A stretch of DNA of 58,359 bases, the filler included, from Jimgerdemannia flammicorona (Eukaryota), in assembly GCA_003990765.1 (NCBI GenBank). It is 3 parts of 3 records of this genome, joined end to end, with 100 filler letters (N's around TTAATTAATTAA, not from the genome) between each part and the next. Parts side by side here need not be neighbours in the genome. Positions count along the whole stretch, not along the records: positions 1 to 19,398 come from RBNJ01001951.1; 2 more parts are not named here. One strand, 5' to 3'. The position numbers and the translations under genes are program-made. Below, in pieces: positions 1 through 35,245 of the stretch. The notes under the pieces were generated by a model. It searched no databases. It saw only the letters and a program-made list of their open reading frames with translations, and was not told the DNA's origin. Each line of letters starts with the position of its first letter. The first letter of the stretch is position 1.

Positions 1-12
1 AAAAAAAAAAAA

Positions 13-3715: not shown

Positions 3716-4009
3716 TCCCATAACCTCTGGCAAGGGGTCAAAAAGTGGTATTTTTGGGCTGGCATCTTCTCTATATATTTTGGCATGATGGTGAAGGGTC
3801 GCTCTCTTTATATAGAGCAAGGGCCTGATTCGGATCTTGACCAATCAGTTGACAGTTCAAACTCCTCTGACTTTGAAAGTCTTATTAATGAGTAGTTGCT
3901 GGTACCATATTCCTTAGAGAATGGTTCAGATAGATAGTCTGCTGGTCATGGGACATGCTGTTATGATTTGCAGACTAGAATCTCATGGACAGTCATCATG
4001 TTTTGCTTC

Positions 4010-7000: not shown

Positions 7001-9221
7001 CCAAGTAGGGTGGTGGTCTGTGGTTCAAGGGTAGTATCTGAATACTGGCAAGGTCCATTCCTATGGCTCCTTCAGTCTTGTATTCTGGGATTTAGGCTTC
7101 AGGGTGGAATTTCTTGATCTTGAGAGTGATATCTGGTTCTTGTTCCTCCTCATCATCACTGTCAGCTTGAAGCTCTGGGGGCTGGTCATCTTCTTCAGCT
7201 TTCCTTTTTGCTTAAGCAGCTTCTTACTCATGCTTCTGTTGGCAGATTTTCCTGACTTCACTGATATAGAACCAGCAGTCATTCAGGTGTTCAGAGCAGT
7301 ATATCCTAGTACCATGGGGGCATCTTCCTTGAGGGGCATAGCCATTGATGATCTTGTTGTACCACTGCTCATCTGTGAGCTTGGGTGTCTTGTTCTTATT
7401 CTTGTTCACTGAGTACATGAAGACTTCTGTGTCCTCCTCATCTCCTTCCTCAATGTCTGGTAGAACTCCTTTGTAGACATTGATAGAGACTTGTACCTTT
7501 CTTCCTCTATAGTTGATCTGTATCTTCTAGGAATTGAGGTCAATGATGGCCTTGGCCTTGTGACACCATTGGTTGCCAATAAGGATGTCATAGTTGGTGG
7601 CACTTGTAACAATTATATCTACTGGGATAGTAGCTCCTCTTATCTTGATGGGGACTTCTCAGATCTTATCAAGTGGGGTAGCTCATATACCATCTGCTGT
7701 GACATAGACCATCTTGGTAGACTCTTCAATGTCCCAACCTAGGCAGTCAATTGTCATCTTGCTCATGAGGCATCCTCCAGCACTAGTATCAATGATGGCA
7801 TTAAAGATACAATCTTCAATCTAACATTGAGTATAGGCTGATGTCTTGCACTGATCTTTAGATTCTTCACCTGAGTCTTCTTGATCATCTTCTTATGTAT
7901 TGTGAGCTTCTACAATCTTGTACTCTTGATTCTTAGCAGTAGTTACAAGTTCTACTCTCAACTACTATCTGAAGGCAGAGACTTCAGCTAGCTATCCAAA
8001 AGTAGCATTGACCTTCTGTTCTTTGAGATTCTTGTAGATATCATACTGGTGGATCTTGGTCTTGTACAGCTTCTGTTCCTTCTTGCTTTTGCTTTCTCCT
8101 GTGACTAGAGTAGTGCCTTCAATGATTTGGCAGACAGCTTCATCTAACTTCATGTCTTGATCAATCTCCTTGGGTTGGGTCTTGCTTTGGATAGTAACAG
8201 CTGGAGTCTTCTTTGGTCTTCCAACTGACTTGCTGTTGCTCTTCTTGTTATAGAGCTTGGACCAGGTTCTGGTATCTTCAGTAGCAGGGTAGAATTCGAG
8301 CTCCTCATAGTATTCTTCATTATCAGTATCACCAATCTCCTCAATGACTACTGCATTGGTTTGTTCTCTGGTTCTGCTAGCATTGCTTGGTTGGGCTTTA
8401 TGTCTTGTTTCAGTCATGCAGCTCTTTGCATAGTGGTCTTCTTCTCTACATCTGAAGTATGTGATATTGTATTCTTCTGTAGCAGCTGCAAATCTCTGTA
8501 CTGGTCTCCTGTTGGCACTTCAGACTTCTCTAACAACATCACCAAGGTGTGCAGTCATCTCAGTGAATTGCTTTGTGAGTTCCTCCACTGGGTCAGCTTT
8601 GGCTGTCTTGGGGATAGGTGGAGATGGTTGTCTGTTTATAACTGTGGTGGGTATGATTCTAGTTGGCTTTGATGGCTCTATCTTGATGTCAGTTATTTTC
8701 TCCATTGAGTGTTCAGCAGGGTGTCTGGCAGTCCAATATCTTTGTGCAAAGATCACTTTCTGATCAAGGGTCAGTGTAGCTGGAGTAGACTGGATTGCTA
8801 GGGCAATTTCAGGATGAACTCCTTTGAGAAAGGTTGAATCTGCTATTTGTTCCTTAAGGTGGTCATCATAGCTAGCCAAGACAATCTGGTAGTAGATTTG
8901 GGTATAGAATGAGTTGGGATATTCACTGAGTCTCTGGTATATAGTATTGAGTTGATCTTTGAGAGCTTGCTTGATCTTTTTAGTATAGTATATTGTTCTG
9001 AGGAAGGCCTTTATGTTGGCAAGTTTGGCTGCACCATTATCAGCAATAGTGACTACTTTGAACTTATCTCTGGCAGGTCCTCTGAGGCTGATAGATAGAA
9101 GAGCCAATTGTGCATCCACATTAAGGGCTTGTACAGTGATGAATTGTTCAAAGTCTTCAATGAAGGTCAGGATTGACTCTTCAGTAGTATATTTATAGAA
9201 TATGGGGAGATGTATTTCCAT
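4010..9221 (-). pseudogene. gag-pol of gypsy copy 1 (capsid, Zn knuckle, protease, dUTPase, RT, RNase H, integrase), disrupted
   Basis: Gag ORF 8520-9221. Decayed knuckle YFRCREEDHYAKSC. Protease AIIDTSAG near 7790. dUTPase RGEKGFGSTG near 6740. RT motifs SPWASPIV, RLCIDYRKLN and YIDD near 6020. RNase H ILQTDA. Integrase with WEGPF motif near 4135. Confidence 0.93.
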
Positions 9222-9322
9222 CTTATACTTGAATTCTTGCAGGGGTGACTCTTGTAGTCGGGGTAGTTATTGTGGTGGTTGTTTATTTTTCAGCTTGAAA
9301 GTGAGGGATTCATCTTGAATCA

Positions 9323-9339
9323 CCAGTCAATGGGCACCA
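9323..9339 (-). promoter_or_regulatory. Primer-binding site
   Basis: TGGTGCCCATTGACTGG begins 3 nt after the 5' LTR end. The priming tRNA cannot be assigned because of mutation. Confidence 0.7.
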
Positions 9340-9342
9340 AGT

Positions 9343-10888
9343 TGTCACATAGTGGTCGCTGAGTCCTTCAAATACATCAAATTCTCTTTAAGGTATATCT
9401 CTTAGACTAACTCAAGTTTGTTATAAGCAAGTTCTTATTGGAGTGTCTTCCTAAGATCTTATAATCCTCAAACTTCTTATCTTTAAACTGTCTTGTTATC
9501 TCTTAGATTGCTTGTAAGGAATTGTGTATATTACACTAAGTAGACTGACTTTATTTCAGAGGAAATAAGAGGGGTATTTATACAAAATATAATTCAATGG
9601 TTGCTAAGATATAAAGCTAAATATAAATTTCAATAACTAAAATAAAATGCCAGGATATGGAAAACTGCTAAGTTTCAGTGTTGACACTAGATTCAGAATA
9701 CTGGTATAATTTCAGTGATACAGGAAAATGGTGCTGGAATAATTCTGAGTTACATCAGAATGCTGGTGGAGGAACAGCTGTTATATGGAAAAAGAGTGCT
9801 GGCATAATTCAGTATAACCAAGGGACTTATAGTAGAATGTTCACGACTATAGGGGCTTCATCCTCATCAGAGGTCAGGATGGCTACAAAGGAGATAAGGT
9901 CTGTGAATGTTTTGTCTGTTCTGTCATCATCATGTAGATCATGCATTTTACATATGTCATGTGGGATGATAATCACCAATGACATCATCACATTCAGTAG
10001 GGAAATTGGGGACTCTCCAATCTATGAGGTTCTCTTTCATGAAATAGGGGACAAATGTGGGGTCTTGGGAAAGTCTAACCTAGATGCTTGGGTCTTAGAA
10101 TACTGAGATCAATCCTTGCAGAAATTGGTCTGGGTTGTCCTGGAGGATGGGATGCCAGTAGTCTTCTACTTCATTACTATTGAGAGTGATAGTGGACTGG
10201 GCTTCTGTAGCCACCCTGGCTTCTAGTACATTGATATGGCAGGCTGACAGGTCTCTGAAGTCTGAGACTTTAATATACTCCAAGTTGGAGATAGACCATG
10301 GTGTATGTCTGAAGATCTGATAGATCTTCTTAACTGTTCTTATTTCACATATATCCATAGAAGTGGCATCTTGTAACTCTTGAGGGCTGGCCAGTGAAAA
10401 CTCCCAGCAGAGGAGGTTTCCTATTTTGTACTCCTGCCACATTTGGAGGTATTTGGTAGCAATGGTGATCCTTGTTTCCATTTCACAGCAGTAGAGAATA
10501 TAGTGATAAGGGTCCAGAGTACTCAGGTTGACACTAGGAGTCCTTCTTGTATGGATCCTCATAGCTCTTCTGATGTCTTAGAACATCCTTTTCTCAACTG
10601 AGGTGCCTTGGTGGTTCCTTGACCTTGAGGTTTGATGAGCAGCAGGCATTTCATTTGTGGTAAGTCTTTGAGCAATTTTGGGATTGGTGAGTCTTATTGG
10701 TTACTGCTACTGCAGTTCTTGATTCTTCTTTTAAATTTCTCAAGATATCTGAACTGCGGTCACAATAACTCACAGTTGGTCATCATTACTCATCTTGTAT
10801 GCCATATGATCTTCTTGTGCTCCGATCTGGTGGCTTGCAAGGAAAGACTGTCTTCTGTACTGATGTTATCATTGGAGTCACCATTACA
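9343..10888 (-). repeat. 5' LTR of gypsy copy 1 (1546 bp)
   Basis: Direct repeat of 2087-3647; contains the same ORF (10095-10562). Confidence 0.95.
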
Positions 10889-10947
10889 GTATATACTGAA
10901 TACAGATTCCATACATACTATATATAAGAATATTTTTCAGATGATGT

Positions 10948-13854
10948 TACTCATACTTAGGAGGTAGAGTTATTGATTCTATCTCAAGAGATATCTGGAG
11001 GTATAGATTGTATACTCTGGTTTCTTTATTATAGTTGAAGTAGTTAGGTATAAATGTAGATTGATACTTATACTAGTAATCATTATTCCAATAGGTCTTA
11101 TAGATAGTTATAAACTATTATACGTCTATTAGTATGATTAGTAGAGTGATCAAAATTGGTAGAGATTCTTAGCTTATAAGAGAATACTTTATTAGAGTAC
11201 TGTTATATAGTTCTGGAAGGTTTTCAGGAAGTTCTGGATATTCTGAAAGATTATTATTTTGAGATCAGGTTTAATTTCATATAGAGTATATCCTCTACAC
11301 TTATTGATTTCAAGATTAGTTAACATCTCAACTAAAGTCCCTTTTACAGACTTATTCTAGATATTTAGAATTTTCTATATTTCAAGAAGTTTAAGAAATT
11401 AAGACCAGCTTAGTGGAATTAGTATATTACTGTAGATAATACCCAATTAGGAAATTTTGGAATCTAGTTTGAAGTTGGATCAAATAGAGTAAGAAGTTAC
11501 TTAAGAGTAGTTTGTAGATTATTAAATAGGTTTAATTGCTATTCATATTACTGCTATACTAAGAGTAGTGTGTAAAGGAGTATTTGTGTAGAGAAGTATT
11601 CTTGACTTACTTGTCTGTTCTGATCTGTTCTTGTCTATATTCTTGTCTATATTTCTGAAATCTGGTGGAGTAGTTATTTATACTAAAAGAAGACTATCTT
11701 GATATCCTTTGATGAGATCACTATTGACAATATCATCTCTGATAAAGTAGTCATCAAGGAAGAGTAGTTCTTGGATTACATCTCTCTATTTATTCATATA
11801 GTAATATATTGGAACTATATCACTATTCTACAGAATGGCATCATTTGTCTCATATACTAAATATAGTATTGGTGAGTGAAGAAGGGGTGTATTGTCTTCA
11901 CTTTCATTAGATTTGCCATCTGTATATCTTTAGTAGATTATAGTGCTATGAGTTGTAGAGTTGTAGTAAGCTAACAGCTGTGGTTTATTTTACTCATAGT
12001 TGAGAGGTGGAGTTGTCAGTTCAATCTCAAGAGTAGTCTAGAGGTACAGATTATGTTCCCTTGTCTCTTCATTGTAGTTGAAGTAGTTAGGCATAAATGC
12101 AGATTGTTATGCATGCTAGTGATCATTATCCCAAAGTAATTATAAACTATTATAAGTTTATCAACAAGACTAGTGGGGTGATCAGGGCTAGCAGAGATCT
12201 ATGACTGGAGGTCATATTAGTATCAGAGAGATTGTTGTCTTCTGCTTCATCATTGTCAAACTAGATTATATTTTAAATATTCTTTATAATATATCTAACT
12301 TAGAGCATTTGCAGGATATAGTTGTTAGGGTGCAGTAAGGTCTGTCTGTGGTTTGAGTATACTCAATATACTTATGGTTGAGTTCTTATACTATATTATT
12401 GATTTGGACATAGGTCAGAGTGACAATCATTTCAGTAGTAGTAGCTTAGAGAATAAGATACTGTACTTATAAACAAGTTCTTAGTATTTGTGGGTGATGA
12501 GTTTCTGGTGTTGCAACATTTTAGTAATATTTGTATCATAATAATGATTTACCATATCTTCTTGGAGGTGACCAATCTGATAGTAGCTTGAGATTTGTCT
12601 GATAGGGTAGGTCTTACTAAGTATATTCAGGACATTTTGTCAGGCTTCAACAAAATAGAGAGATGCTTGGCTATAGATATTTATGAGAGATAGAGGGGCT
12701 GTAGCTTCATTGATAATAGTATTCTAAATATCAGCATGAATGCAGTTATAGATTTTAGTTGTCATATCTGAGTATATATTTGAGAGTTGTGATTATTTGT
12801 CTGATTAGTTGTGGTTCTCTATTTTGATTTATAGGATAGTTGGTATATATTCTTCTAGGTCTGATTAGTAAGATCTTGTTTTTGTATAAATCTTATTCTA
12901 TGACTTTGAGTTGACTCAGTTTCATGATCTGTAACTTCAGTTTGACTTAGCTTTATAATCCTATATAGGATTTCTAGATTGTTCTGAGAGGGACATGTAA
13001 TTTAAATAGCTTAAAGATTGTGCACTTATATACTTAGAGGTTATCTCAGTATCAGAGGGGTTATTGTCTTCTACTTAATTATTATTAAGCTGAATTATAT
13101 CATAGATATTCTTTATAGTATATCTAATTTGAGATATTAATAAGATATGATCATCTGTACAGAAAGGGTCTGTCTGTTGTTTGGATATATCTGATATATT
13201 TCTAATTGAGTTTTTACATCATATCATTGATTTAACCATAGGTCAGAGTGATAACTATTTCAGTAATAGGGAATTAGAGATAGAGAATAAAGATACTATA
13301 CTTATAAAGAGTTGATAGTATTTGAAAGCAATAAGCTTCTAGTGTTGAGATATTTTGGTAATATCTATATTATAGTAGTAATTAACTATATCTTTCAGAA
13401 TATGGTCAATCTGATAATAGCTTATGATTTGTCTAACTTAATAGGTCTTGTTAAGTATGTTCATCAGGCTTTCATGAAATAGAGTAGTACTAGACTATTG
13501 ATATTCATTAGGAGTAAGGATTCTGTAGTCTAATTGACAATAGTATTCCAAATGTCAGTATGGATGTAATTGTAGACTTCAGTGGTTATGGCTGAGTATA
13601 TTTTTGAGAGTTATAGTTATTGTTTAGTTTGTTATAGTTCTCTGTTTTAGTATATTATATATCTGGTATATATACTTTCAATCTTGATTAGTAAGGTTCT
13701 ATTTTCATATATCATATATTCTATAACTTCAAGTTAACTTAGCCTCATAATATATGACTTTAGTTTGACTCAGCTTTGTAATCTTATATTTGATTTCTGA
13801 ATTTGTTCTATGGGTGATATATGATTTTGGTGACTTAGAGATTGTATACTTATA
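10948..13854 (-). mobile_element. Truncated LTR of family X (copy A), split by copy B
   Basis: 10948-11174 joined to 13036-13854 aligns continuously with 17231-18289 (gattcttagct|agaggttat). It ends in cttata. Confidence 0.75.
11175..13030 (-). mobile_element. Solo LTR of family X (copy B, about 1.86 kb) nested in copy A
   Basis: Ends TATAAG...CTTATA, read as mutated TGTAAG...CTTACA. Collinear with 16224-18289. Imperfect 5-bp TSD TAGCT/TACTT. Confidence 0.8.
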
Positions 13855-16753
13855 ATCAGACACACCTATACTTACAGATATACCTATGTCTAGTAGATAT
13901 ACCTGGTCACTCTCTTCTCTAAATAGCATTACTATATATTCTATAGTTAGCTACATAGTAACCCGATAGCAACTACAACTGGTTAAAATATTCTAGAGAT
14001 AAAAGTGAATAAACCTCAGTCTGAAAATTAAAGTAAAAGCTAATTTTTTAATATACTTAGAAGGAGAAATCTATCAATGAGCCACTGTTAAGAAGTTGTA
14101 AACTATTTTTTACTCTAGTTTACTTTCTAATAGAAAGTTTGATTTGCTGCCAATTTTGAGTAAAAAACTTCTCTATCATTTTTCAGAAGAAACCCACCAC
14201 TCAAAACCAGTCTAGTATAAGATACACCTTTGTAGTAAATCTATTTGTACAAATGAAGTAGTCTTTAATATAACTTTGTAAAGTCTATTATATTTTAGTA
14301 TACTTGCCAGACTAAGTCTGAAGAATATTGCCAAGTAACCTGCTATAAAAGAAAAGACCACTATTTTCAAGTAAACTACTGATTCAGGAAGAATTTACAT
14401 TATATACTAAATTACCAACTCACTGCCTAATAAGGAAGTCTTCCAGATTGCACACATAATGTCAGATCATCATATAGAAATTATATATATAAGAAACTGC
14501 TCTTATTACACAACTCACTCAAGAAGAAAACTGCTAAAATTACCAAAATATCATTACACCCAAGAATCTGCTCTAATAAGAAATTACTTCACTAGGTATT
14601 ACTTGGTTTTGGATCATTTCAGAGTTGTTTTATACTATCCTGAAAATGTTGGCATGCTTTATTTGTCTTAAATATAGTGGTTTTATATCTATGAATTCAT
14701 CTGTCTAAGACATACATATGTATTATATAAAACATAGTAATAAAATGTCCTAGCTCCCACAGAGGCCATCTCTTAGCAATTTTGAAAGCTTTGACAGTTT
14801 GCTGTTTTTTTCTCTATATCTTCCTTTACTAGTGTGATTATGAATGATGACCAAATCTAACAATAATTTTACCAGACTACTTGGGCTGAGTGCACTGAAT
14901 ACTTATAACAGATTACCAAAGCTATTGTAGTCAGCCTTTGCCCTCCTCTAGTGGATCTAAAGATCATAAACAGTAGGGAATACTGATGTATCATTGACTT
15001 CCTTTTTCTCTATCAGCAGGCTGACAAATCCCCCAACCTCAGAAATACTATCAATGTAATAGACCTCTATGATAAGGATAGTGGAGACAAGGGATTCCTC
15101 ATCACTATCAAGACAAAGGCCATTGAGTGATATCATTTCCCTTTTATATTTATAGATATAGTACCTCAGGATAGAATTGAAGTCTATCTTACCTCTGCCA
15201 ACTTCCAAAAACTCCTCTGCCATAACCCTAAGCCAAGGTGGGGTATTTTCTACACCCTCAACATCAATGAAGTCTTTGCTGATGATTTTTCCAAGATAGC
15301 TTAGAAAGCAGACAAGGTTCTTGCTGATACTCAATGAGCAATCTATAATACCCTCTGCTCAATTGCCATTATCCTCCATGCCCTCAAGTCCTGCTTAGAT
15401 GAGACTAATATCTACCATAGACTGGTCAATGATACTATCATTCCCCCCTTGGTGGAAAAACTTCAGGACTCACTCTAGATCAGTTTTTATAAGGCTGAAC
15501 ACATCTAGATCTGCTGCTACACAGACTTTACCAAGGCCACTGACTGGTCTCCTGCCCTTCTCTCTGCTTGTCATACCATGACCTCAGACTCTAAATTTGA
15601 TGGTAATCTCTTTGGCACCAACTTTATCTACTATTTTTATAATGATGCCAAACATCAGAAGTACTGCATCCTTATTTGCAATGTGGCCAAACTTAGCCAT
15701 TATATAGATACTTCTTACTATAGTTCAACTCTCTCTGGGGACTAAGGCCAGGGAAATAGGACATGGGGCAACTACTGTCCTAACTACCACCAACAATCAT
15801 CCAGCTCTCAAACCCACACTCTGAATGTCAATAGCTATAGAGGGTTCTGTGCTCCATACTCAAGATACAGTATGTCTCAATCAACCACCCAACCCTGAGC
15901 CCTTCTCTCTATCACATAATTACCCCTAAGTCACTAAATGGCATATTTAAAATAGAAGTGCGACTTACTCAGATTCCAGAGCCTACTAGGACAGCTTAGA
16001 TATAGACTGCTGGGCTATCAATATAGTCTACAGTAAGACCAGGATTAAATAGAGGAGTCTCCCAAAACCTGTCTGGACTAAACCCTGGTTTTCTTATAAG
16101 TGGGGTATATTCCAGATAGAAAAGGCCTTAGTGGATATAGCCATCACTGAATTCTAGAATAAGGATGCTATCTACACTATCTCTCTCAGAAAGCCACTTC
16201 TTTTCTAACATCTTTACCATCCCTATAAGAGGGTTACTTATAAAAGTACTATTATATAATTCTAGAGGGGTTTTCTGGAAGTTCTAGATATTCTGGAAAA
16301 CCATTTTCTTTAGGTCAAGATCAATTTCATATAGAGTACATCCTCTATGCTTATTAATTTCAAGATTAAATTAACATCTCAACCAAAGTCCTTTTTTGGA
16401 CTTGTTCTGGATGTTCAGGATTTTCTGTATTTCAGGAAGTTCAAAAAACTAAGACCAGCTTAGTTGAATTGGCATATCACTGCAGATAATACTCAATTAA
16501 GAAATTTCATAATATGGTTAGGAGTGGGATTTAACAGGATGAGAATTTACTTAAGAGTGATTGGTGGGTTATTAAATAGATTTATTTGCTATTCATAATA
16601 TTACTATACTAGGAGTAGTTGTGAAGAGATATTATGGGGAAGTGTTCAGGAGTTCTTGTGTATTTGAATTGTTCAAGTCTGTTCAAGTTTATTCAAGTCC
16701 AAGATTCTGAGATCTGGGGGAGGGAGTATTTATATCAATGAGAGACTATCTGG

Positions 16754-16931
16754 ACTATGCTAAATATAGATATAGCACTTAGTGTCTTGTTGAGTCAGAA
16801 TGCAGTCACAAAGTACAAGTGTGAACTGATATGTCAAGAGATCATCTAACTACTGAGTCAGTATATAGTTACATCATATGAGGCTAATCTAACTATATTA
16901 ATGACTGCTAAGCTATCTATAAATTTAGATG
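16754..16931. mobile_element. Small MITE-like insertion inside LTR X copy C
   Basis: Absent from copy B. Flanked by the 8-bp direct repeat CTATCTGG. Imperfect terminal inverted repeats (ctaaatatagatatagc / gctatctataaatttag). Confidence 0.6.
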
Positions 16932-17029
16932 CTATCTGGGTAGTCTTAAATGACATTATCATCAATGACCTTATCTCTGATGAAGTAGTCATTTAGAAAG
17001 AGTGGTTCTTAGATTACTTCTCTCTATTT

Positions 17030-18289
17030 ACTCAGATAATAATATATTGGGACCATGTTACTGTCTCACAGAATAGTATCATCTGTCTTATATGCTAGGT
17101 ATAGAGTTGGTAGGCAAAGGAGAGGTATATCATCTTTGCTTTCATCAGATTTGCTATCTGTGTACCTTTTATAGGTTATGGTACTATGTGTTGCTGGATT
17201 GTAATAAACTAGTGGCTGTTCTTCATATTGCTCATACTTGGGTGGTAGAGTTGTCAGTTTGATCTCAAGGGTAGTCTGGATATATAGGTTGTGTTCTTCA
17301 GTCTCTTTATTGTAGTTGAAGTAATCAGACAAGAATGTAGGTTAGTACTTATACTAGTGGTTGTTATCCCAATAGGTCTTGTAGGTGATTATGAACTATT
17401 ATAAGTTCATTGGTAAGATTGGTGGAGTAATCAGGGCTGGCAGGAATCCTTAGCTAGAGGTTATATTGGTATTAGAGGGATTGTTATCTTCTGCTTCATC
17501 ATCATCAAATCAGATTATATTATAGATATTCTTTAGAGCATATCCAACTTGGGGTATTTGCAGGATGTGGTCATTGGGGTACAGAAAGGTTCTGTCTGTA
17601 GTTTGAACATACTCAATATACTTGTAGTTGAGTTCTTATACCATATCATTGATCTGGCCATAGGACAGAATGATAACCATTTTGCTACTAGTAACTTAGA
17701 GATGGGAAATAAAGGTGCTGTACTTGTAAAAGAGTTCTTGATATTTGAAAGCAATGAGTTTCTAGTGTTGAGACATCTGGGTAATGTCTGTATCATGATA
17801 GTATTTGACTATATCTTCTAGGAGGTGGTTGATCTGGTAGTAGCTTGAGATTTGTCTGATTCAGTGGGCTTCAATGAGCATTTTCAGGGCATTTCATTGG
17901 GCTTCTACAAAGTAGAGAGTTGCCAGACTATGGATATTCATGAGGGGCAGGAGAGGTGTGACTCAGTTAACAATGGAATTCTAAATATCAGCATAGATGT
18001 AGTTATAGATCTCAGTGGTCATATTTGTGTATATGTTTAAAAGTTACAATTATTTGATTGATTTATTACAGTTCTCCATTTCAATACATCTGAGTACTCA
18101 GTATATATATGTTTGGTCATGATTGGTAAGATTCCATTTGTATAAATCTTATATTCTATAACTTCAAGTTAACTCAGCTTTGTGCTCTGTGACTTTGGTT
18201 TGACTTAGCTTTGTGATCTTACATGTGATTTCTGGATTTGTTCTGAGGGTGATATGTGATTTTGGTGACTTAGAGGTTGTATACTTATA
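17030..18289 (-). pseudogene. LTR-encoded ORF of family X, apparently homologous to the gypsy U3 ORF
   Basis: The frame runs from the first LTR base: YKYTTSKSPKSH...IYADI*NSI...SSYYQINHLL...KLIAFKYQELF...LSYGQINDM. Stops are TAA/TAG/TGA consistent with C>T or G>A changes. ORF 17066-17332 is a likely downstream part after a frameshift. Confidence 0.65.
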
Positions 18290-19398
18290 ATTCTATCAAT
18301 AAGGTCTGTGCTTACCTTGATATATGATCTCTAAACAAATTTGTATAATGACTATATCATAAGATTGAGTGCATTCAGACCCTATGCTATATGGTTTGTC
18401 TGAATGACCACCTAGTCAAGATCAACATCAAAGATGCCTATCTCTACATTACTCTTCAATCCAATGGTCAATGTTTTCTGGCATTCTGTTAATGACTGAT
18501 CAAACTGGAAGTTCTAGGCCATACTATTTGGACTATCATCTGTCTCTTAGATATAGGCAAAGATGATGGCAGCCATTCTGAAATCTCTCTGATAGCAGGG
18601 CATCTAGCTAACCTACTATATTGATGATATCTGTCTCCTGGCCTCATTCTGAGAGGAGACTCTTTGCTATGAGACTATTGTCCACTACCACCTAGAGGCA
18701 CTGAGATTTCCCCTGTACCCTATAAATTGCACTTAGGAATCCAGCCAACAATAGACCTTCTTATGGTTCCTGATTGATATTATCAAGATAGAACTACATT
18801 TACCCCTGGATAAGGTCTATAAGATTTACAAAGAAACCTCCTATTTTCTATACTGTACTGCCTTGATCTCTATATGAAGGTTGCCTCACTGGTGGGCCTA
18901 TGCAACTCTATCTCCCAGGTAGTTTTTCTGGCCAACTTCTGGATCTAGTCTCTCATCCAGAATATTCAAGAGATCCTATAGACCAATAATGATAACTAGA
19001 ATGGCCTGATATCTATCTCTCCAACTTTCCATGATGATCTACAATAGTGGTCCCTCAAATTGGCCAGGTGGAATAGCAGATCCCTTCTCTCTGAATACTC
19101 TGAAGTTATAATTGATACTAATGCAAGTAACTAAAGGTGGGGTTTCAACATTACTGCCAGCACCCCCTGGGCCATATATCAGGCAACTGGCTCCTAGACC
19201 CCTTGGAAATAGAGCCAATCAATCAACTACTGTGAGCTCAAGATAGTTCTCTTTATCTTACAGATCAATGACTATCATTGAGAGAGTCATATAGTCCTTA
19301 TCTAGACAGACAATATGATTATGAAGACTTTCATCAATAAGCAGGAGGGACTCTCTCCACCATCTGAATGATGTGGCAGCCCAGATCTATTACCTTTT

Positions 19399-19498
19399 NN
19401 NNNNNNNNNNNNNNNNNNNNNNNNNNNNNNNNNNNNNNNNNNTTAATTAATTAANNNNNNNNNNNNNNNNNNNNNNNNNNNNNNNNNNNNNNNNNNNN
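19399..19498. other. Assembly gap with artificial linker
   Basis: N-run, TTAATTAATTAA (19443-19454, stops in all six frames), N-run. Confidence 0.97.
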
Positions 19499-22400
19499 CT
19501 CGGTCAAGGTCGTGTTCTGCTTCAGAGACTCGGCTAGGGCGCGTGCCCCCTCGACGCCGATGCCGTTTTCTGAACATGAACAGGGGATGGATGAGCAAAA
19601 ATGCACAGATCGTTAGCTTGATTCCATCACGCAGCCGCACACAATGCTTCACACAGTTCCGACATACTTCTGAGATTCAGTTCGGTCAAGGTCGTGTTCT
19701 GCTTCAGAGACTCGGCTATGGCGCATGCCCCCTCGTCGCCGATGCTGTTGTCTGAACATGAACATGGGATGGATGAGCAAACATGCACACCCACTCACCA
19801 GCCTGGCCCAAAAGAATGCCAATATCAAAAATGAATGAACCTCAGTGTGCACTGTAGCAGATCGTTAACTCGATTCCATCACGCAGCCGCACACAACGCT
19901 TCACACAGTTCCGACATACCTCCGAGATTCAGCTTGGTCAAGGTCGTGTTCTGCTTCAGAAACTCGGCTAGGGCACGTGCCCCCTCTTCGCCAATCTCAT
20001 TCACTATAAAATGAACAAGGATGAGCGAACACCCACAGATCGTTAACACAGTTCCATCATGCGGCTGCACACACAGTTCTGACATACCTTCGAGATTCAG
20101 CTTGGTCATGGTCATGGTCTCCTTTAGAGACTCGGCTAAGGCGCGTGCTCCATTCTCGCGAATCTTATTCACTTTGAAACGGAGAGGAGGTGCGTGAACA
20201 CACTAATATCTTTAGCTTAATTCCATCACATAGCTATACACAATGTTTCACACAGTTATGGCATACTAGACAAACTCAGCTCGATCAAGGTCTTGTTCTG
20301 CTTCAGAAACTCGGCAAGGGCTCTGGCCTCCTCATCACCGAAGTCAGTCTCTGAAGTTGAATGATAAATGAGAAACACATGCAATATACTAAGGATTTTT
20401 TCAGGAAGCTCTCTTACATACCACTGAGATTCAGTTCTGTCAATATTGTGTTCTGTTTCAGAGACTCAGCTAAAGTACGAATAAATAGAATGCCAACAAT
20501 ATTTTCTGATATTATCAAAAATAAAAATAAAATAAAATAAAATAAACGAGTACAATTAGATATCAAGCTTGCTCCGATGTACATATTAACTTCATATAAT
20601 ATTGATAGAAATATTAACATACTGGAGAGATTGAGCTTGATCAGCTTTGTGTTCTGCTTCAGAAATGGAATGAGAATATTCACTTCTCTATCATTAATAT
20701 TTTTTCCTAAATATAACAGAATATCAGTAGATAGATATATAACATAATTAATTTCCTGCTAATATTAATTTATAATTTTTTTAATATACCAGATAAATTC
20801 AGCTCATGTGAGGTCATATTCTTTTTGAGAATTTCTGCTAAAATATCAGTCCTTTCACTACCAGTTGTACTTCCTTAAGATAAATAGATAGTTAATAAAC
20901 CATGAGCTTGATTAAATAACTTGTCTGCAAAACAATTATTCACGCAATTCTGACATACGAAATGTGTTTTGCTGAAGCTCAGTGAAGGTGCTGAACTCGT
21001 CCAAGCTAGCATATCTCTCTAAATATAAATAAACAATTAATAAATAGTTAGCTGTAAGTAATTGTGATATTCCACCATACAGTTGGCTGTCTCTCGCACC
21101 TGAATAATGCAGCATATAACAAGAACGTAAATGCCAACCAGTTGGAAATGTGAATACTGAAGTACCTAGATTTGGCTGATGACTGAGACTTTCAAGCACT
21201 GCTTTCACGTGATGTTCTGCAATTTCCTGAAGATGTTTGTTTGTATAGAATTTGCTCCTGGAATGTAAGGCGCTCTGTCCTTCGCAGAATGTGAACTTAT
21301 TGCTGGTGCTGCTGATCAGCTCTTGCTGATTGATGGCCCGTCGATTATTGATGAACGATTGCATCTCCAGCGAAAATGGGACCCTCGTAATTGCAAGTGC
21401 TCTTAATACTTGACATTCTATATCTGATGGTGAGACAGGTGGAATCGCAGCTAAACTGGTGAAATTTGCTAAACCAGCTGCATATTCGATCAACTGATTG
21501 TATACTTCATGGGCACTCGGTCGCTGGTTAGGGTCGAGTTTCCAGCAGCTCCGAAGGATATCGTTGAATGCCGCATGTGCACCAGGGATCAGTTCTTCGC
21601 GAAGGCCATCTTGTTTGGTTGATGCGATGCCATGGGGTGGAACGCCGACGACCAGCTGCCACAGCAGAGTTCCCAAACAATAGACGTCAGATTCTTTGGT
21701 ATACTTCTTGATCTTGAACATCTCTGGAGGGAGGTATTCAATCCGGCCATAGACTCCTTCTTCTGAATGGTCTTGTTCCACAGAACGGCTAAGTCCCACA
21801 TCAATCAAGAGTGTGGTTTGAGATTTGTGGAATACTACATTGCCCGCATGAAGATCCCGATGACAGAAGCCCATATCATGGAGGCTGGTCAAGCGACTGG
21901 CAAGTTTTATGGCATATGTCAAAGCAGTATACCAATCACCATCTTGTGTGCAAGGCTGCTTCTCGAGAGTGCCAATGTCAGCAAAATGCATGATCATCAG
22001 ATACTCTTTAGTAATAGGGTGTTTTGACAAAGCAACAATATTCATTGTTGGTACATTGCTGATATTATCTCCACAGTAACTCAAATAGACATTCAGCACT
22101 AACTGTGAAGGTGGAGTAAAGACAGAGCAAGGTTACTGGAAAGAAGTTGTCTGAAAAATATTATATAATTATATTACATAAACGGGAACTTGCCTCTTCA
22201 ACCATTGGCAATTTCAACTCTTTGGCAGCCACCTTGTAGTGACTGTTAGAAACCGAAACATTTGCCTGGTAAACTTTGGCAAACCCGCCTTGCGCAAGCA
22301 GTTTCAAATTTAGGAGATGCTGGGGCTGAATCCAGGCAAGGTATGGCTCCAGCTGTAACATGCTCAAGGCGGCGAGGCAGGCACGGAGTTGTAGGCCATC

Positions 22401-22657
22401 ACGGAGTTGGTCGTTAAAATCATTACGATTCTTCCATGCCGAGATTTCTGTTTGGTGGTCTCTGTGCAGTTGGTCCCAGGGCTTGAGTCGGTCCAACAGG
22501 TTCTTTCGGTGTGTGTGGGCTGACATATTCTTAGGGATATTTTTGACGTAAAAACGATTTCGGTATTTAGTCAAGACAGATCAGAGGACGCCACCGATTC
22601 TGGAGGACAGCGGTGATTGGAGGCAGGTGTTTTCTTTTGGCCAATGGAATTACCCAT
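19499..22657 (-). CDS. Multi-exon TKL-type protein kinase fused to C-terminal RNI/NLRC3-like leucine-rich repeats (3' end lost at the gap; 5' end uncertain)
   Basis: Kinase motifs LAQGGFAKVY, VAAKEL, HRDLHAGNVV, DVG, YLPPE, SDVYCLG and QRPSA. LRR exons of exactly 84 bp with AG/GT borders at 20790-20873, 20623-20706, 20422-20505, 20267-20350, 20088-20171, 19920-20003 and 19668-19751, plus a partial one at 19499-19569. Repeat unit NEIGEEGARALAEFLKQNTTLTKLNL. Confidence 0.88.
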
Positions 22658-22744
22658 TCCGAGCCTTCGGAATTAAATAACCATGAGCAGAGCACTATGC
22701 CGTGATGCCAAAACCTTAGGAGGCAGTGTGACAACTGAGATAGA

Positions 22745-24540
22745 ATGGTCGTCTTCAAGACCATTCTCCAAGGAAGGATTCCTACGCATACTCTCTCTAC
22801 TTCTCCAAAGTCTCCCTGAACCACCCATCCTCGACACGATCCTCGCCCACATCGTCAACAAGATCGCCAAATCCGAGAGCCTTAAGTGCGAGCTTCGTAC
22901 GTATCCCATTCCACCATTATTCGTTCATCCAACCCTTTGCTTTTGTATCCTCACGTTATCCATTCCCATCCCAGGGGCCAAGTGCGAGCACTTCAATGCC
23001 GGCGGTTCCGTAAAACACCCCAACGGTCGTCGCATGGTCAAGGAGGCCAAGAAAGCCGACACTGTCACCCCGGGCGTAGGCACCATCATTGAACCGACTT
23101 CGGATAACATTGGTATGTGTTCGTGGTGATTTGGGTTGAGACAGAAAAATAATTATTGTGAAGGAACGCGAGGAAAGGGTGGGAAGGGAAATGTCGAGGA
23201 GCAGTACTATAAATTACGTTCAAATCTTATGGAATTTTCTCATAACGGTCATGTTAACAATTACACGACATAACACCGATCTCCACTTCAACCCATTTCC
23301 TTTTCTCCACCCACCTACCACAGGTATCGGCCTCTCTCTCGCCGCGGCCGTGAAAGGCTGCCAGGCGATCATCACTTTACTAGTCACCGAGATTATCTGC
23401 ATGCCGACAGAGGCAGCATGGGATGCGCCCGAGTCGTACATCGGCGTGGCCTGGCGGCTTCAGAAGGAGAACTCCAACTCCGTCATCTTCAATCAATACG
23501 ATAACCCCTACAACCCCATCGCCTACGACACCACTGCAGAGGAGATTCTCAGGCAGGACGGTGGGAAGGTCGATATGTTCGTCGCTGACGTGGGGACTAT
23601 CACCGACGTGGTGAGAAAGCCGAAGGAGAAGTGCCCGAATGTTATTGTGAGTGCAGTTTAGGGTTTATTCTTGGGCGAGGATGAGGTGGGGCATCAGGAT
23701 AGGCAAATGCTGATGATTTGTGATGTTCGTCATCAAAGCTCACACAATCTCACCGACTTTAACCGAAAATCTGCTCCCCTCCCCTCCCAGATCATCGGCG
23801 TGGACCAGCATGGCTCTATCCTTGCTGAGCCCGCGGTGCCCAACACGAACAATGAATCCTATAAGATGGAGGGGATCAGGTATGACTTCACCTCGAGGGC
23901 AGCTGATTGATGGTTGGATCAAGTCCTCTGACAAGGAGTCTTTCCTCATTCGCGAGTAAGGTATCCTCTGCGGTGGCTCCTCCGACACCGCCATGTGGGC
24001 CAGCGTACGGCCATCAAGAAGCACGGCTTGGGTTAGGGAAAGCGTGTCGCGTACTGTTACCTGCTTCCGTGCCCAATTATATGACAAAGTTCTTGAACGA
24101 TGATTGGATGAGGAGTAATAGGTTTACTGATAAGAGGTGTTGTGATTTTGTTGTTTCAATTTCAAAATATATACAACTTATTCAACTCGCCCACCCGACT
24201 CTCGCATCCCACCAGACTCCTGTCAACCAAGCCATCACTTCGATCAGCTTCCCGTGGTGTTGCACGGCATGCATGCACCTCTGTGGTCTGGTTACCCTTG
24301 GCTATATCCTGTCACGCGTCGCCTCGGGCAGCGCCACGTCCTCCACCACACCGGTCTCGGATTTGATGTTCCATTTCCAGACCGGAAAGCACTCATTCTA
24401 GGAAATCACGGTCGAAACACCTACTGACAACCTCACCCGGTTCTTTGAGATCAACTCGAGCGCCGCCATCACCGAGCGGGAGAAGACCACCGGCGAGCTT
24501 AGGGTCAGGTATGTTGTCACTAAGGTCAATCTGTTGGCAT
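22745..24540 (+). pseudogene. CYS4: Cystathionine beta-synthase pseudogene (introns retained)
   Basis: Motifs [65 protein letters not shown] and NYMTKFLNDDWM. It lacks GNTPLV and the PEKMS segment, the GTGGT loop is eroded, and there is an in-frame TAA near 23957 plus frameshifts. Confidence 0.88.
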
Positions 24541-25742
24541 ATTTGGTCGGAAGGCTTAAATGGGGTGAGATGAAGAGTGGTCGGGTTGAATGTATTATAG
24601 AGTAGATGAGAGAAATTTTTAAAGGTTTTTTTTCGGATTTTCAGATAGAACGTTTTTTTTTTTTTTTTTTTTTTTTTTGAACTCTTTGAAGACACTGCAT
24701 CCGATTTTGTCTGCTTTATGTTCGTAACGCAGGTAATGGGACAATAAAAGTCATTGTGTGGTTGCAGATTTCTGTTTGCCATTATTGATCTTCAAGTACG
24801 GAATGATTAAAGAACAATGAAAAAAAATAGGCGCAGGTTCACACGGTTATTACCGTCATGTTCTCGTACTTCACCATGATGACATTGAATCATGGATCTG
24901 GCCGTCCCTTTGCGCTTCAACAAAATCCATTTCGATCTTAGGAATAATTTGACCCGGCCGATTCCCCAGCATGGAAGACGACAAGCTTGTGGAATTCGTC
25001 ACTGAGGCTGCGTTGTACATAGGGCCGCACTCATGGGATTTCGAAGAAATTTACTACATAATTATATATATATTGCGTTTCCGGGATGGGGCTTGGGTTG
25101 ACACATTGATCCTCACTGATAATCTACTCATTATGCACACACCTCAGATCAACCCCAATGTCTCGATCGGCCTCATGTTATGGTCAGCACGGATGTACGT
25201 ATAAGGTGCCATTGTCCTTGACAACGGCTCAATGTATGTACGTGCATTTCTCGTTCTTGGTCGAATATTTAATCCCTCGGCTAAAACTATTTTCCCCCAC
25301 TTCCCAAAAAGAACGGCACCTGCAGGTTCCACGCGAGGGAAATCCTATTTTTCGGGCGCCAGAGTACTATTGCTAGGAAGAGCCAGTCTGTAGGTTCGAC
25401 GGTAAATGCGCCTTCGATACTGCTATTTCTTGAATTTGTGAAACAAAGCTGTGAAACCGGTGTTTCGACCACTGTTCCGCAATTCACCTCCATGCAACAA
25501 GAACGTGACGCGTCGTTAAAGGTCAAAACTTAAATTCCCTTCCCTCTGGCAACTTCAAATATCATGCCCGATAACAAATTACTCCTGAGGACGCTCCCAA
25601 CCCGAAGCGCGCTTGGCGCCTTGATGAGCGACGTCGACTGCCTCAACCCCAGCCATTGATCCACCCGTTGGCCTACCTACCCCTTGACCCATCCATTGAC
25701 CTCAACCCATTTACCCACACGTTGACCCGCCATCCAAGTCTC

Positions 25743-27100
25743 ATGAAGCTTGTTTGCTTCTGCTTCAGTCAAATACCTTATGAACGAGCCCGACAAGGTG
25801 AGACAAAAGCTCCCCCTATTATCTTTTGAGGCAGTGAACGAGATATGGCGTTCACATTGCCGAGTGCGTCGAATCTTTTAAGAGCTTATGCTACGCTGAC
25901 CCTGGGATGACTCTGTTGGAAAATGGCGAAATCGCCTAAAAGCTAGTGGCGTGATTGGGGATTAGTCGGACGGCCCTTATATCTACAACAGGCATCATGT
26001 TACGTGCATAAACCTTGACTGCTACCCTCCCCCTCCCTATTAGGCAGCACCGGCCACGAGCCTGCCTATGCGACTTTTGTTGGCCCTTTGACGCTCACTG
26101 CTGCTGTGACCGCGCACATCTCGCCAGATCCTGGCTGCACTTCGTCCCGCTCGTCCCCCGTGTGGCACCTTGAATCATCAAGAAACTATACGGACGATTT
26201 CCCTGCACTTTGGCATGGCCGCGGGTATGAAGGTAGAGATAGTCATCTTGAGCGAGGACATGGCAGTCCAGGGAAAAAGGCAAGTTGATGGGAAGGAGGG
26301 GACTATCGGGACGACACTAGTGCATAAGGTGGCGGGGGCTTTGGCGACTAAAGAGTAAGATTTCTTGGCGTAATCAAGTAAGAAGGTTCGCGACGCGGCT
26401 CAGTACGTTGCGTCTAACACCGCGACCATCGGCATTTATCTGGACCATTGCCACATCCCTGGTTCCAGCAGTTTTTGCGAGCCTGGCTAATTCTGAGCAG
26501 GAGAACCTACTTGACACTACGCTCGGCATCACACTCGATTCAACTGACTCACACCGCGTGCTCGATACAACTGACTCACATCGCTTTGACTTTACCGAGT
26601 CATACTACTTGTCAACAACGCTGTCAAATGCCTGGCGTCCCGTAAAGGAATTATCGCCGAGCACGTTATCTCCAGCTACTTTGTGATAGCCTGAATATGC
26701 TGAGGCTGCCGAGCGAGGGCGGGTTGGATCTGGTACCGTTGCCGGACGAGTCGGCACGCTGGCGTGGACGAACGAAACAATAGGTCTACGACAGGTGTAA
26801 TCTATGCGAGAAAGTTTGGATAAGGCGACGGCGGAGGGAAATGAAATTGGCGTGGGTTCGCGTAAGTATTGGGACGTTTTGTCAATAATGTATAATTTTG
26901 ATCGATTGGAGGGCGCTACAATGATGTTCGGTTTCGGGTTTCTTGCTCTTATTCCTCTTTTGGATTGAACTCTTTTTGTCTAACCTCAGTTCCAAGCCGC
27001 GAAGGCCATCTTCGTATGCTGTGGCTGAACACATTATCGCTGCAGAACCGGATACCGCTTTCTATGATACCGTGGCGACTGGAGGCATGTACTCAAGCAA
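25743..27100 (+). pseudogene. DAK1: Dihydroxyacetone kinase (Dak1 domain plus start of Dak2) pseudogene
   Basis: Motifs GHEPAYATFVG, LTAAV, LHFGMAA, GTTLVHKVAGALA, ASNTATIGIYLDHCHIPG and IIAAEPD..FYDTV. Multiple deletions and frameshifts. Confidence 0.8.
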
Positions 27101-29798
27101 GGTGTAATGCTCTGCATCTCTCCCTCCCCCGTTCCTTTTTATCCTGCCACATAATGAACCCTAGTTGGATTGCGCTCGATCTCACGTTCCACAATTTTAA
27201 TCCCACCTCCTCTTCACAGCGCCTCTCAGTCTCTTCCACATTGTTTATGATAACTTTTATGGCGTCATCACGTCATTCGAGGGACTGGATGTCATTGACT
27301 CCATCTGATCGATCAGGTTATCACCGTAAGTAATATCAAGCACGCGCCATACGAGGCTTCGTCTCTATAATCTACATGCTCGCTTTGTTTAATTTTCATG
27401 TACGTATGCAAACCTTTCTTAAGTGTGCCCTCAGGTAAGCTTGCTTGGTTTTTGTTCTGTTGACTACCCATTTCCAAGTCCTGGTTGCCGATGTGAGCAT
27501 TTGGCACACTTTTGCCTGCAATAACTCTTCGACCCTTCTTTGGATCGTTTTTCGCTTTGCAATCTTCTTGGAATTTTTGTACTTCCCGTTTTCCTGCCAC
27601 TTTTTTTTATTTATTTATTACGCGCAAACTTCACACCACGCCATTGTTAATTGAATTCATCGGTAAGTTCCTCCTCTTCTCCCCTGCAGGAATACGATTT
27701 CGGTAGAAACCTTAAGCGCAGATCCAACACATTGAAGCCTAACTCGCACCCCACTCAGTCAGGTGATTCTTAATAGATATAGGCAAGCGAGTATAGGCTT
27801 TTTTTAAAAGATTTGTAGGTGGGGAAATTAATGGCGTGATCAAGATCTCGGTGTTGGTGAGTGGGTCGAAGGCGAGCTGGAGGCATGATGAGGTCGAGTG
27901 GTTGTTGGATGTGATATCCTCGTGGCGATAATGGTAAAGGGACTGAGACGGGGGGGGGGAAGGCGGGGAAGATATGTTAACTTCAACAAGTGTGCGTGTT
28001 TGGATGAGTTTAAGCCATCCAATCATCATCGTGTTAACCTGTTGCCATAATACCTATGATGATATACCCTAGTTACTTGAACATGAAATAAAAAAAATAC
28101 CTCTCTGTCAGCGCAAACGCGCAAACGCGCAAACACCAGCTTTCCTACCGCCGAAAATAAATAAATAAAATACTAGCTTGTTCAGCCCACACCGCCCAAT
28201 TAGCTGGATACCCCACCAACCCTTCCCAGCCTGGTACAGTTCACTCAACATCAGTACGTTATTCAAAGTGACATTTCCCATTTGCACCAGGCCATTTGTT
28301 CTTTGAATCGATATCTGTATCACAAGTTTAAGGACGTGGCACATCCGAAGCTGTTTATTTTTTCAATATGGTTCTCAAATAATACAGTCATGTGGAACAA
28401 TGCAACGGCGTTTTTTTTATTTTATCTACTGGGAACACAGATAGTGGTCGGGAGACAATGTTAATTCCACGATGGCAAAGATCGATCATCGTATCGCTCA
28501 TTGACCAAATGAATAAAAATAAAAAATAAAAAAAAATACCTCGCTGCATTCCACCACTGTCCCGCGTCAAACCGCATTTTCAATCCAACAAACAAGCTGA
28601 GAATGGGTGGAGACCGCCTTTGTCATTCACAATGTCGCGACCGAGGTTGTCGAGAACTATGAATGCGAAAGAAATGACGGTGGGACTGCTCAGTTATAAC
28701 GTCACTGTCTCCTCCAAACATGGACTCGAAGGATGTTGACGCGAATAGGTACACGATATTCTTGACGAGAACAAACCTGCCAATAGGCCCCATTTTAAAG
28801 GCCACTTTATTCTTTGAAATAGTTTTATTTCCAAATATATATTATATATTACAATATCGTCCAATCGAAAAACCAGTCGGAAAAGAGATGGTTTCGCCCT
28901 TGTTTAAGGGGCTCGTCAGTTGGCTTAAAAGTAACCAAGACCCCATCAACGTGGCCGGGGCCTCGTCTATTCTCTCGCCCATTACATTCAGCGAACTCCC
29001 ACTCACCAAACACTAAGAACTCGAGCGTGGCAACAATTTATTATATTATCATTTGCTAACACGCTGAAATATAGGTAGCCCTAGCAATTGCTCATTCCTT
29101 TTTAACCGGACTTTTCTAGCCTGTCCCTTTACTTATTAGCATTTTTATTTTATTATTTCATTTTATTATTTTATTTATAATAAAAACATAATTAGGAAAC
29201 CAGCTGTATTTTATAGCGCCCGCCGTCCCTATCCCACCCCGGCGCTTTTTGCCCTGGTGACCTAGTGTGAAGGAAATTGGAGTTTCATTGTTAGTGAAGG
29301 AAATGGGAGTTTCAGCATAAGTTGTCAAGCAGTTGGGTCGGTCGACGGATTTGTAGCTTAACCACATGTCAGCAGCAGCGGGATGCATCGCAAGGAGTTG
29401 GAATAGTATATCAACAAGTAACGTGAGTAGACCAACGACTGCCTGAGCAACCGCCGATACAAAAGCCCACCAAGTGCAGGCAACGGAGGGCCAAAGGCTC
29501 AACCGCGCAGAAGACAATTACTAGGAAACAGATAAAGGTTGAGGATGTGGAGATACTAGTTAACGACGGGGGGAAAAGGGTGACGGCCGCAAGACTACAC
29601 CTCTCATTCGAGGGCAATTCAATACGACACAGGTCCCACCGACTTGCAGGGTTCAATGGGCCTGGAGGCATCAACCATCCACCTGACCAACAACTTGTCC
29701 CCCGTGCCCCAGAGGAGCAAAGGGTAAGGCGAATTGCTTCACCTGAAGTGGGGGCGATAGGAACGCCATGCATCAAACCTCGGATCTGCCCCCAAGAA

Positions 29799-29885
29799 GC
29801 CGTAGCTTTGCCATAGCTTGCCGTAGCTTGCTGTAGCTTTGCCATAGCTTGCCGTAGCTTGCTGTAGCTTTGCCGTAGCTTTGCC
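29799..29885. repeat. Tandem repeat of a 10-11 bp unit GC(C/T)(G/A)TAGCTT(T), about 8 copies, with a 31-bp higher-order period
   Basis: gccgtagctttgccatagcttgccgtagcttgctgtagcttt... is read directly. Confidence 0.9.
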
Positions 29886-35237: not shown

Positions 35238-35245
35238 GGTATATA

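Follow-up and report, generated by a model that had tools for sequence, protein, structure and literature searches.

A decayed LTR-like repeat of Jimgerdemannia flammicorona may carry a distant homolog of a protein encoded in the LTRs of a Ty3/gypsy element

Introduction

LTR retrotransposons are usually described as gag-pol genes placed between non-coding LTRs. Genes inside an LTR are known chiefly from complex retroviruses, MMTV (sag) and HIV (nef) among them. In retroviruses, the U3 region of the 3′ LTR contains or overlaps sag of MMTV (the 'LTR ORF'), nef of HIV and SIV, and bel/bet of the foamy viruses.

We analyzed a window of 58,359 nt from Jimgerdemannia flammicorona (GCA_003990765.1), in which three records are joined; positions 1–19,398 are RBNJ01001951.1. 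A first-pass annotation had proposed that the LTR of a Ty3/gypsy element and a second LTR of dissimilar DNA sequence, here called repeat X, encode homologous proteins. The gypsy LTR family resembles the retroviral U3 genes in that its coding sequence would lie inside U3, occur in each LTR of the DNA, and be found in the genomic RNA at the 3′ end only. Like them, it is presumably accessory and dispensable for the core gag-pol machinery. It differs from them in its fungal host and in its carrier, a Ty3/gypsy element without env, and it has no sequence relation to them. Pfam scans, run ORF-wise and on short read-through stretches, gave no match of any kind, MMTV Sag and other retroviral U3 proteins included, either for the three pieces of the gypsy LTR ORF (E up to 0.01) or for X on either strand (E up to 5).

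Full-text literature searches brought up the MMTV 'LTR ORF' and studies of additional retrotransposon ORFs; the text portions they returned held no report of an LTR-resident ORF in any fungal retrotransposon. In bdelloid rotifers, additional ORFs of LTR retrotransposons are common to diverse element types (PMC5408684). As is proposed for X and the gypsy element, these are ORFs beyond gag-pol that recur across the retroelement families of one genome; they differ in that the accessible text of that paper does not describe them as LTR-internal (PMC5408684).

Repeat X and its copies

Comparison of the window with itself gave the following pieces of repeat X.

16224–18289, minus strand: copy C, the full unit of 2066 bp, with ends TATAAG...CTTATA and flanks ATCCC / ATTCT (blastn and nhmmer self-comparison)
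11175–13030, minus strand: copy A, a full unit of 1856 bp nested in copy B and 75% identical to copy C along its full length
13035–13856, minus strand: 5′ part of copy B (unit offsets 1 to ~835), separated from the remainder by copy A
10944–11174, minus strand: continuation of copy B (unit offsets ~835–1065), truncated thereafter

The unit had earlier been given as 17030–18289. It in fact spans 16224–18289, since copies A and C align end to end and share the same termini. Position 17030 is internal to the unit, because of this end-to-end alignment and because copy A sits in copy B as one block. The self-comparison showed copies A and C to be collinear throughout, save for one indel of 186–219 nt, and the copies diverge by ~25% pairwise. 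The 6-bp inverted repeat TATAAG...CTTATA, which gives TA...TA ends, is found in all three copies that retain an end. No further pieces of X were detected in the window by nhmmer, and the remainder of copy B was not found beyond the gypsy insertion (1140–2085).

Five extra bases are present where copy A entered copy B. The two sequences at this site, TAGCT and TACTT, match at three of five positions. The flanks of copy C also match at three of five positions, and both mismatches are C/T. The first-pass annotation had contrasted target-site duplications of 5 bp for X and 4 bp for the gypsy element. The 4-bp duplication of the latter (ATAC) was found as described; for X, the evidence consists of the five extra bases with three of five matching.

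Taken by its sequence, X is probably a solo LTR, now dead, left by an older, second family of LTR retrotransposons.

The gypsy element and the gene in its LTRs

The gypsy element occurs in two copies, g1 and g2.

2086–3647, minus strand: 3′ LTR of g1, with termini TGTAATGG...GTGACA and the PPT AGGAGGAAGA immediately before it
2581–3405, minus strand: U3 ORF of the g1 3′ LTR, with ATG at LTR offset 243, one in-frame stop, and a frameshift before the ancestral ...LNILL(stop) end
9342–10888, minus strand: 5′ LTR of g1, with the same ORF carrying 3 stops, and GTATAAATACCCCTC at 9569–9583
47571–49115, minus strand: 5′ LTR of g2, with a more decayed version of the ORF (~5 stops)

Copy g1 is flanked by the ATAC duplication and encodes a dUTPase between the protease and the RT; fungal gypsy elements bearing a dUTPase are known. 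The second copy, g2, spans 43192–49115. The gypsy LTR copies diverge by 13–18% pairwise. In the g1 3′ LTR, the frame runs for 276 codons with a single stop, and all of the motifs that had been read in it are present (QDIRRAM, YKIGNLL, RIAKKIHQIF, PWSIPNL/PWSISNL, and LSACCIN).

A protein search yielded three intact relatives, which share 65–73% identity with the window copy when aligned (71–77% by BLASTP). A separate search for fused or longer versions of the protein gave no match. An exhaustive profile search yielded seven matches among 1.84 billion representatives. P0005, P0007, P0008, and P0010 are progressively more distant members, the last of which enters the family at E 1.6e-4. P0009 proved to be a spurious repeat protein and was dropped. 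A scan of metagenome DNA with P0001 detected one locus, L001, with an intact ORF of 323 codons; the same scan with the profile of the narrow family alignment (A3, see below) gave no match. The external family members are thus P0001–P0003, P0005–P0008, P0010, and the L001 ORF. Family lengths range from 247 to 342 codons. The start, at LTR offset 243, is conserved and reads MPAAR, MPALR, or MPPIR in the relatives and MSAAC in the window. Over 257 codons, L001 and the window copy differ with pN 0.30 and pS 0.75. Judged by these sequences, the gypsy LTR gene represents a real gene family.

An AlphaFold model of the family protein is poor (mean pLDDT 53), with a predicted helical core at residues 45–135. 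Foldseek found nothing in the PDB for this model at E ≤ 0.001, and the Protein Atlas placed the L001 ORF among unnamed clusters only.

L001 and the window LTRs share a conserved box, GTATAAATACCCCTC, which has AATAAA 26–28 nt after it. In both, it lies ~180–220 nt after the stop of the ORF and ~245 nt before the LTR end. Because this conserved TATA box is located 3′ of the ORF, we infer that the gene is placed in U3, upstream of the transcription start.

Homology between X and the gypsy U3 family

The frame proposed for X is read on the minus strand from 18289. The motifs reported for it, ADI(stop)NS, YQINHLL, LIAFKYQELF, YSTFISHL, and LSYGQIN, were found in that frame, and YQIGHL is present at 12582, in the copy at 11175–13030. 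The first-pass annotation had aligned this frame by eye with the gypsy U3 ORF, and had noted no nucleotide similarity between the two LTR families. The latter point was confirmed, the best nhmmer match between the families having E 0.64. The protein alignment fared differently in pairwise and in profile comparisons.

In pairwise form, the alignment is within chance. The Smith-Waterman shuffle p was 0.07–0.9 for X against the window or external members (P0001–P0003) and a non-significant 0.15–0.33 for X against P0010 alone. Under four scoring schemes, the proposed frame of X scored 35–41 versus up to 52 in other frames. HMMs built from the window gypsy copies or from the close alignment A3 found no match in X, and hhalign of X against A3 gave a score of 16.5 (E 0.24), no better than other frames. 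When a profile of X was run against the family proteins together with 500 shuffled decoys, the best match was P0007 at E 3.3. The X translation had no relatives in a search of 5.8 billion proteins.

Three family alignments were tried before a signal appeared: A3 is narrow, and A4 and A6 are broadened with distant members, A6 being free of window sequence. With the broad profiles, the by-eye alignment was reproduced, extended, and raised above its controls. In hhalign, the alignment of the three X copies in the proposed frame scored 30.6 against A4 (E 0.0031), versus 8.9–13.5 for the five other frames, 13.9 for the reversed query, and a mean of 14.4 (sd 2.4, maximum 22.7) for 90 column shuffles. 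Against A6 it scored 28.4 (E 0.006), versus 10.5–15.1 for the other frames and maxima of 22.4 in 60 query shuffles and 17.5 in 60 template shuffles. The probability that hhalign itself assigned to X was only 6–10%. Taken singly, copy C scored 28.6, copy A 22.5, and copy B 10.9, that is, no signal for copy B.

The segments paired by hhalign are ADI with QDI, YYQINHLL with EYEIGNLL, LIAFKYQELF with TAKKIHQIF, ISHL with IPNL, and LSYGQIN with LSSRRIN. The pairing continues to the C-terminus of the family, where the acidic ...DDIPLLCLPTL of X is matched with ...DDEAPLILNFLL.

The window was also searched with hmmsearch as 588 six-frame chunks. The proposed frame of copy C was the top non-gypsy chunk, with E 0.017 for A4 and 0.006 for A6. 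The homologous frame of copy A (~12741–12525) came next, with E 0.19 and 0.044, respectively, and the best unrelated chunk had E 2.4–6.6. Copy C in the proposed frame held the top non-gypsy position in all five profile variants, including those without P0010 (E 0.006–0.74).

Members were then left out of the profile one at a time. Without P0010, the hhalign score was 18.2 (E 0.17) and hmmsearch gave E 0.74; in the other eight of nine cases, hhalign scored 24.0–30.1. Such a drop on removal of a single sequence makes the homology signal fragile, and the signal depends largely on P0010. We conclude from these sequence comparisons that homology of the X ORF to the gypsy U3 protein is moderately supported, yet fragile: the broad profiles lift it above shuffles and other frames, and the pairwise tests and narrow profiles do not.

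The strongest competing explanation is that X once encoded a protein unrelated to that of the gypsy LTR, and that the profile similarity arose by chance or from composition, helped by the use of several profiles. The non-significant pairwise tests, the negative narrow profile, the loss of signal on removal of P0010, and the three alignments tried all speak for it. However, the frame and the region had been fixed in advance by the first-pass annotation, and none of the 90, 60, and 60 shuffles reached the observed scores. X in the proposed frame also stands first among ~570 non-gypsy chunks in each of the five variants, and the position in the unit, the orientation to the TATA box, the length, and the acidic C-terminal end all agree between the two ORFs. 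We regard an unrelated X protein as unlikely.

Architecture of the two LTRs

Two further features of copy C are required for a comparison of the layouts.

17102–18079, minus strand: decayed ORF remnant of X copy C, 326 codons with 15 stops, running from a Met codon near the family start to the acidic ...DDIPLLCLPTL
16729–16734, minus strand: TATAAA of X copy C, in the context TATAAATACTCCCTC at offset 1556, 3′ of the ORF remnant; it resembles GTATAAATACCCCTC

An AATAAA follows in copy C at offset 1597, 41 nt past the TATAAA, and copy A carries TATAAATAA at the aligned place. X therefore has its Met codon at offset 211, the end of the alignment at 1188, TATAAATACTCCCTC at 1556, and AATAAA at 1597. 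The gypsy LTR has its ATG at 243, the stop at ~1067, the TATA box at ~1306, and AATAAA at ~1334. The predicted layouts of the two units match. The resemblance of the TATA motif in X to that in the gypsy LTRs and L001 is not statistically special: a window scan with the ungapped IUPAC form GTATAAATAYCCCTC gave 8 matches versus 5.4 expected, and the X site was not recovered.

X shares with the gypsy U3 family the collinear motifs (Q/A)DI, Y-x-I-x-x-L-L, (T/I)A-x-K-x-x-x-(I/L)F, I-x-(N/H)-L, and LS-x-x-x-IN, and an acidic tail followed by P-L-(I/L)-(L/C). In both, the ORF lies ~210–240 nt into a long LTR-like unit and before a putative TATAAATAC-type box, and the length is similar (~326 codons in X versus 247–342). 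The differences are also clear. The identity is just ~16–20%, and the X unit is longer (2066 versus ~1550 bp). X ends in TA...TA and the gypsy LTR in TG...CA, and the duplication at the target is a putative 5 bp (three of five matching) in X and 4 bp in the gypsy element. The X copies are far more decayed, with ~25% divergence versus 13–18%.

It could be argued that the ORFs are homologous but that X is not an LTR, being instead another mobile or duplicated unit of 2 kb, e.g. a non-autonomous element or an LTR fragment that had been captured. TG...CA termini are absent from the X copies that retain an end, where TATAAG...CTTATA is found instead. All three copies are solitary. No parent element was found within the window, whether as paired copies, an internal region, a PBS, a PPT, or a pol remnant, and neither a minus-strand Pfam match nor a convincing PBS or PPT was found in the 2.4 kb that separate copies B and C. 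Against this, X is a discrete unit that inserted as one block with five extra target bases, its short inverted ends are of a kind seen in LTRs, and it has the gypsy-like order of ~210 nt, ORF, putative TATA box, AATAAA, and tail. Moreover, old LTR families usually end as solo LTRs, as is well established. We consider this explanation still less likely than that of an unrelated protein.

Former coding state of X

As a present ORF, the frame proposed for X is closed. Across the whole unit of copy C, 43 of 688 codons are stops. The homologous stretch has 15 stops in 326 codons, near the ~20 expected by chance from composition, and copies A and B carry frameshifting indels. Nor does the frame begin at the first base of the LTR, as had been proposed: the first 150 nt lack codon periodicity, and the start codon of the family aligns near offset 210.

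A record of past coding is found in the differences between the copies. In the proposed frame, copies C and A differ at 111, 70, and 128 of 413 sites at codon positions 1, 2, and 3, respectively. For the three pairs of copies (~1200 nt), the corresponding fractions are 0.27/0.17/0.31, 0.26/0.15/0.33, and 0.30/0.18/0.32. The phase of this period-3 pattern is constant in all eight 150-nt bins between offsets 150 and 1350, in each of which position 3 varies at least as much as position 1; no periodicity is found at offsets 1350–2066.

A dN/dS-like ratio of the Nei-Gojobori type among the X copies is 0.21–0.27 in the proposed frame, the lowest of the six frames, versus 0.46–0.58 in the antisense frame, 0.39–1.23 in the remaining frames, and 0.38–0.75 in the tail. 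Neither a majority reading of the three copies nor one preferring C/G at transition differences separated the proposed frame from the codon-aligned antisense frame, with 8 stops in each. The strand assignment rests on the dN/dS-like ratio and the variation at position 3, because stop counts cannot separate the antisense frame. It is moderately well supported that X formerly carried an ORF on the proposed strand and in the proposed frame. The earlier suggestion that the LTR-borne family had been under selection is borne out by this ratio in X, by the intact, diverged ORFs with a conserved start, and by the excess of pS over pN in L001.

That X was non-coding throughout, its periodicity and by-eye motifs being artefacts of skewed composition, would fit the near-chance number of stops, the A+C-rich minus strand, and the equal stop counts left in both strands of the de-mutated reading, but is very hard to reconcile with a phase that holds in eight of eight bins and ends abruptly at offset 1350, a chi-square of ~23 from the C–A codon-position counts, and a dN/dS-like ratio that singles out the proposed frame.

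Proposed origin and role of the U3 gene

On balance, we favor the reading of X as a decayed solo LTR from a second family, with a U3 gene distantly homologous to that of the gypsy element. The homology taken by itself is somewhat more probable than this full picture, because the architectures match.

On this favored reading, a gene of ~330 codons would begin ~210–240 nt inside the LTR of X, as in the 1.55-kb gypsy LTR. A TATA box ~200 nt past the gene would be followed by a short R/U5 tail, an arrangement that would place the gene wholly in U3. The X and gypsy genes would be distant homologs within one unnamed family of accessory proteins. Its members would begin with a basic region rich in Arg and Ser, continue with a helical core, and close with an acidic tail that has a hydrophobic motif of the P-L-[IL]-L type at its end. 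Selection would have kept the family while the elements were active. The protein may have been made from a 3′-terminal genomic or subgenomic transcript, as is the case for retroviral U3 genes.

The protein might conceivably act as a regulator of the expression of its own element or of RNA handling, a suggestion for which the charge pattern is the sole basis. The basic N-terminus and the acidic, hydrophobic C-terminus would suit a regulator of transcription or RNA export, but this is a guess. In a wider and rather doubtful scenario, LTR elements of the Mucoromycota type would carry an old, selected U3 gene, inherited by at least two families that cannot be aligned at the DNA level, and its product, made from a 3′-terminal subgenomic or read-through transcript, would regulate the transcription or RNA export of its own element in the manner of Tas/Tat or Rev. 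If this were true, the gene would be to retrotransposons what the U3 genes are to complex retroviruses.

The first-pass annotation had spoken of a protein family shared across retrotransposon lineages. The data are explained equally well if related gypsy families of a single clade inherited the gene vertically. The 4-bp and 5-bp duplications hint at different integrases, and common descent within one clade would suffice here as well.

The data point to the U3 gene as an undescribed accessory protein of fungal retroelements. The family has no Pfam entry, would lie wholly inside the U3 region of a fungal Ty3/gypsy element, and is represented in environmental data by intact relatives kept under selection. 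X suggests that the gene was also carried by a second LTR family beyond the reach of DNA comparison, which would make it an old gene and not a one-off capture. If confirmed, it would provide a tractable case of a regulatory or accessory gene in the LTR of a retrotransposon. For annotation, long "non-coding" LTRs and solo LTRs of early-diverging fungi may hide a gene that is now masked as repeat.

Composition of the window and decay of the repeats

The window consists of eukaryotic DNA with many transposable elements. In its repeats, CpG occurs 0–4 times per 2 kb versus 50–80 times for GpC, whereas the gene-bearing parts (~18–33 kb and ~56–58 kb) have normal CpG. The decay of the repeats is described as CpG-deamination-like because they are nearly free of CpG and the genes are CpG-normal. 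Classic RIP was dropped as the mode of decay, since CpG-specific decay fits the repeats instead. A ciliate-type genetic code (table 6) was also rejected as the cause of the stops: TGA matches TAA and TAG in frequency in every frame, and the ORFs stay closed. All copies of the U3 gene within the window have been ruined by decay of the CpG-deamination type. Elsewhere in the window, a kinase ORF at 20936–22132 has its closest clusters in Mucoromycota.

Decayed dUTPase-bearing elements and probable live carriers of the U3 gene

The dUTPase is an uncommon additional domain among Ty3/gypsy elements. In this window, it adjoins the reverse transcriptase in all three gypsy-type elements (Pfam PF00692, E values of 5e-10 to 7e-11). 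These are g1, its second copy g2, and a third, diverged copy with 66–68% identity to g1.

Third dUTPase-gypsy copy and the dUTPase domains (Pfam PF00692) of the gypsy-type elements
35870–38880, together with 33800–35870, plus strand: third dUTPase-gypsy copy, diverged
6131–6913, minus strand: dUTPase domain
45074–45517, minus strand: dUTPase domain
38067–38354, plus strand: dUTPase domain

The presumed 5′ LTR of the third copy lies within a stretch of 16–25% GC, and the family profile, which was built from members of the ORF family inside gypsy LTRs (the U3 gene), no longer detects a U3 gene in it. A GTATAAATATCTCCA motif is located at 35667–35681, approximately 200 nt before the end of this presumed LTR.

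All of the repeats (1–18000 and 34000–56000) are nearly free of CpG, with 0–4 per 2 kb, whereas the gene parts (18000–33000 and 56000–58359) have a normal content of 50–118 per 2 kb. This distribution implies that the transposable elements here underwent CpG-targeted methylation and deamination and disfavors CpA-type RIP as the cause of the decay.

The metagenome contig L001 carries an intact family ORF and the TATA/AATAAA portion of an LTR at positions 1–1345, and CpG is still present in it. Therefore, elements bearing the U3 gene are probably live, or recently were, in some environmental fungus.

Flanks and a possible insertion

The alignment of g1 and g2 runs approximately 57 bp past the start of the 5′ LTR (10889–10945 versus 49108–49164) in AT-rich sequence. 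This extended match may be coincidental, may stem from an insertion context common to both copies, or may be due to a segmental duplication.

In X, a decayed repeat, copy C contains approximately 200 bases (16755–16972) that are missing from copy A. Part of this segment (16853–16894) matches the start of X (13732–13773) in inverted orientation with 76% identity, so the segment may have arisen when a short piece of X inserted secondarily.

Other features of the window

Two pairs of 44-base N runs (19399–19442/19455–19498 and 38882–38925/38938–38981) have 12 bases between their members; they represent sequence that was masked or withheld, and anything across them is unreadable. At 19500–20400, there are direct repeats of approximately 108–138 nt, spaced 168–347 nt apart, with four copies each and 62–94% identity; they adjoin a minus-strand ORF (19882–20202) with a weak leucine-rich-repeat match. 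The remnant of a LINE-type (non-LTR) retrotransposon on the minus strand (39100–43000) has an RVT_1 match (E value of 1.5e-20), a weak endonuclease/exonuclease/phosphatase match, and a strongly negative GC skew on its strand.
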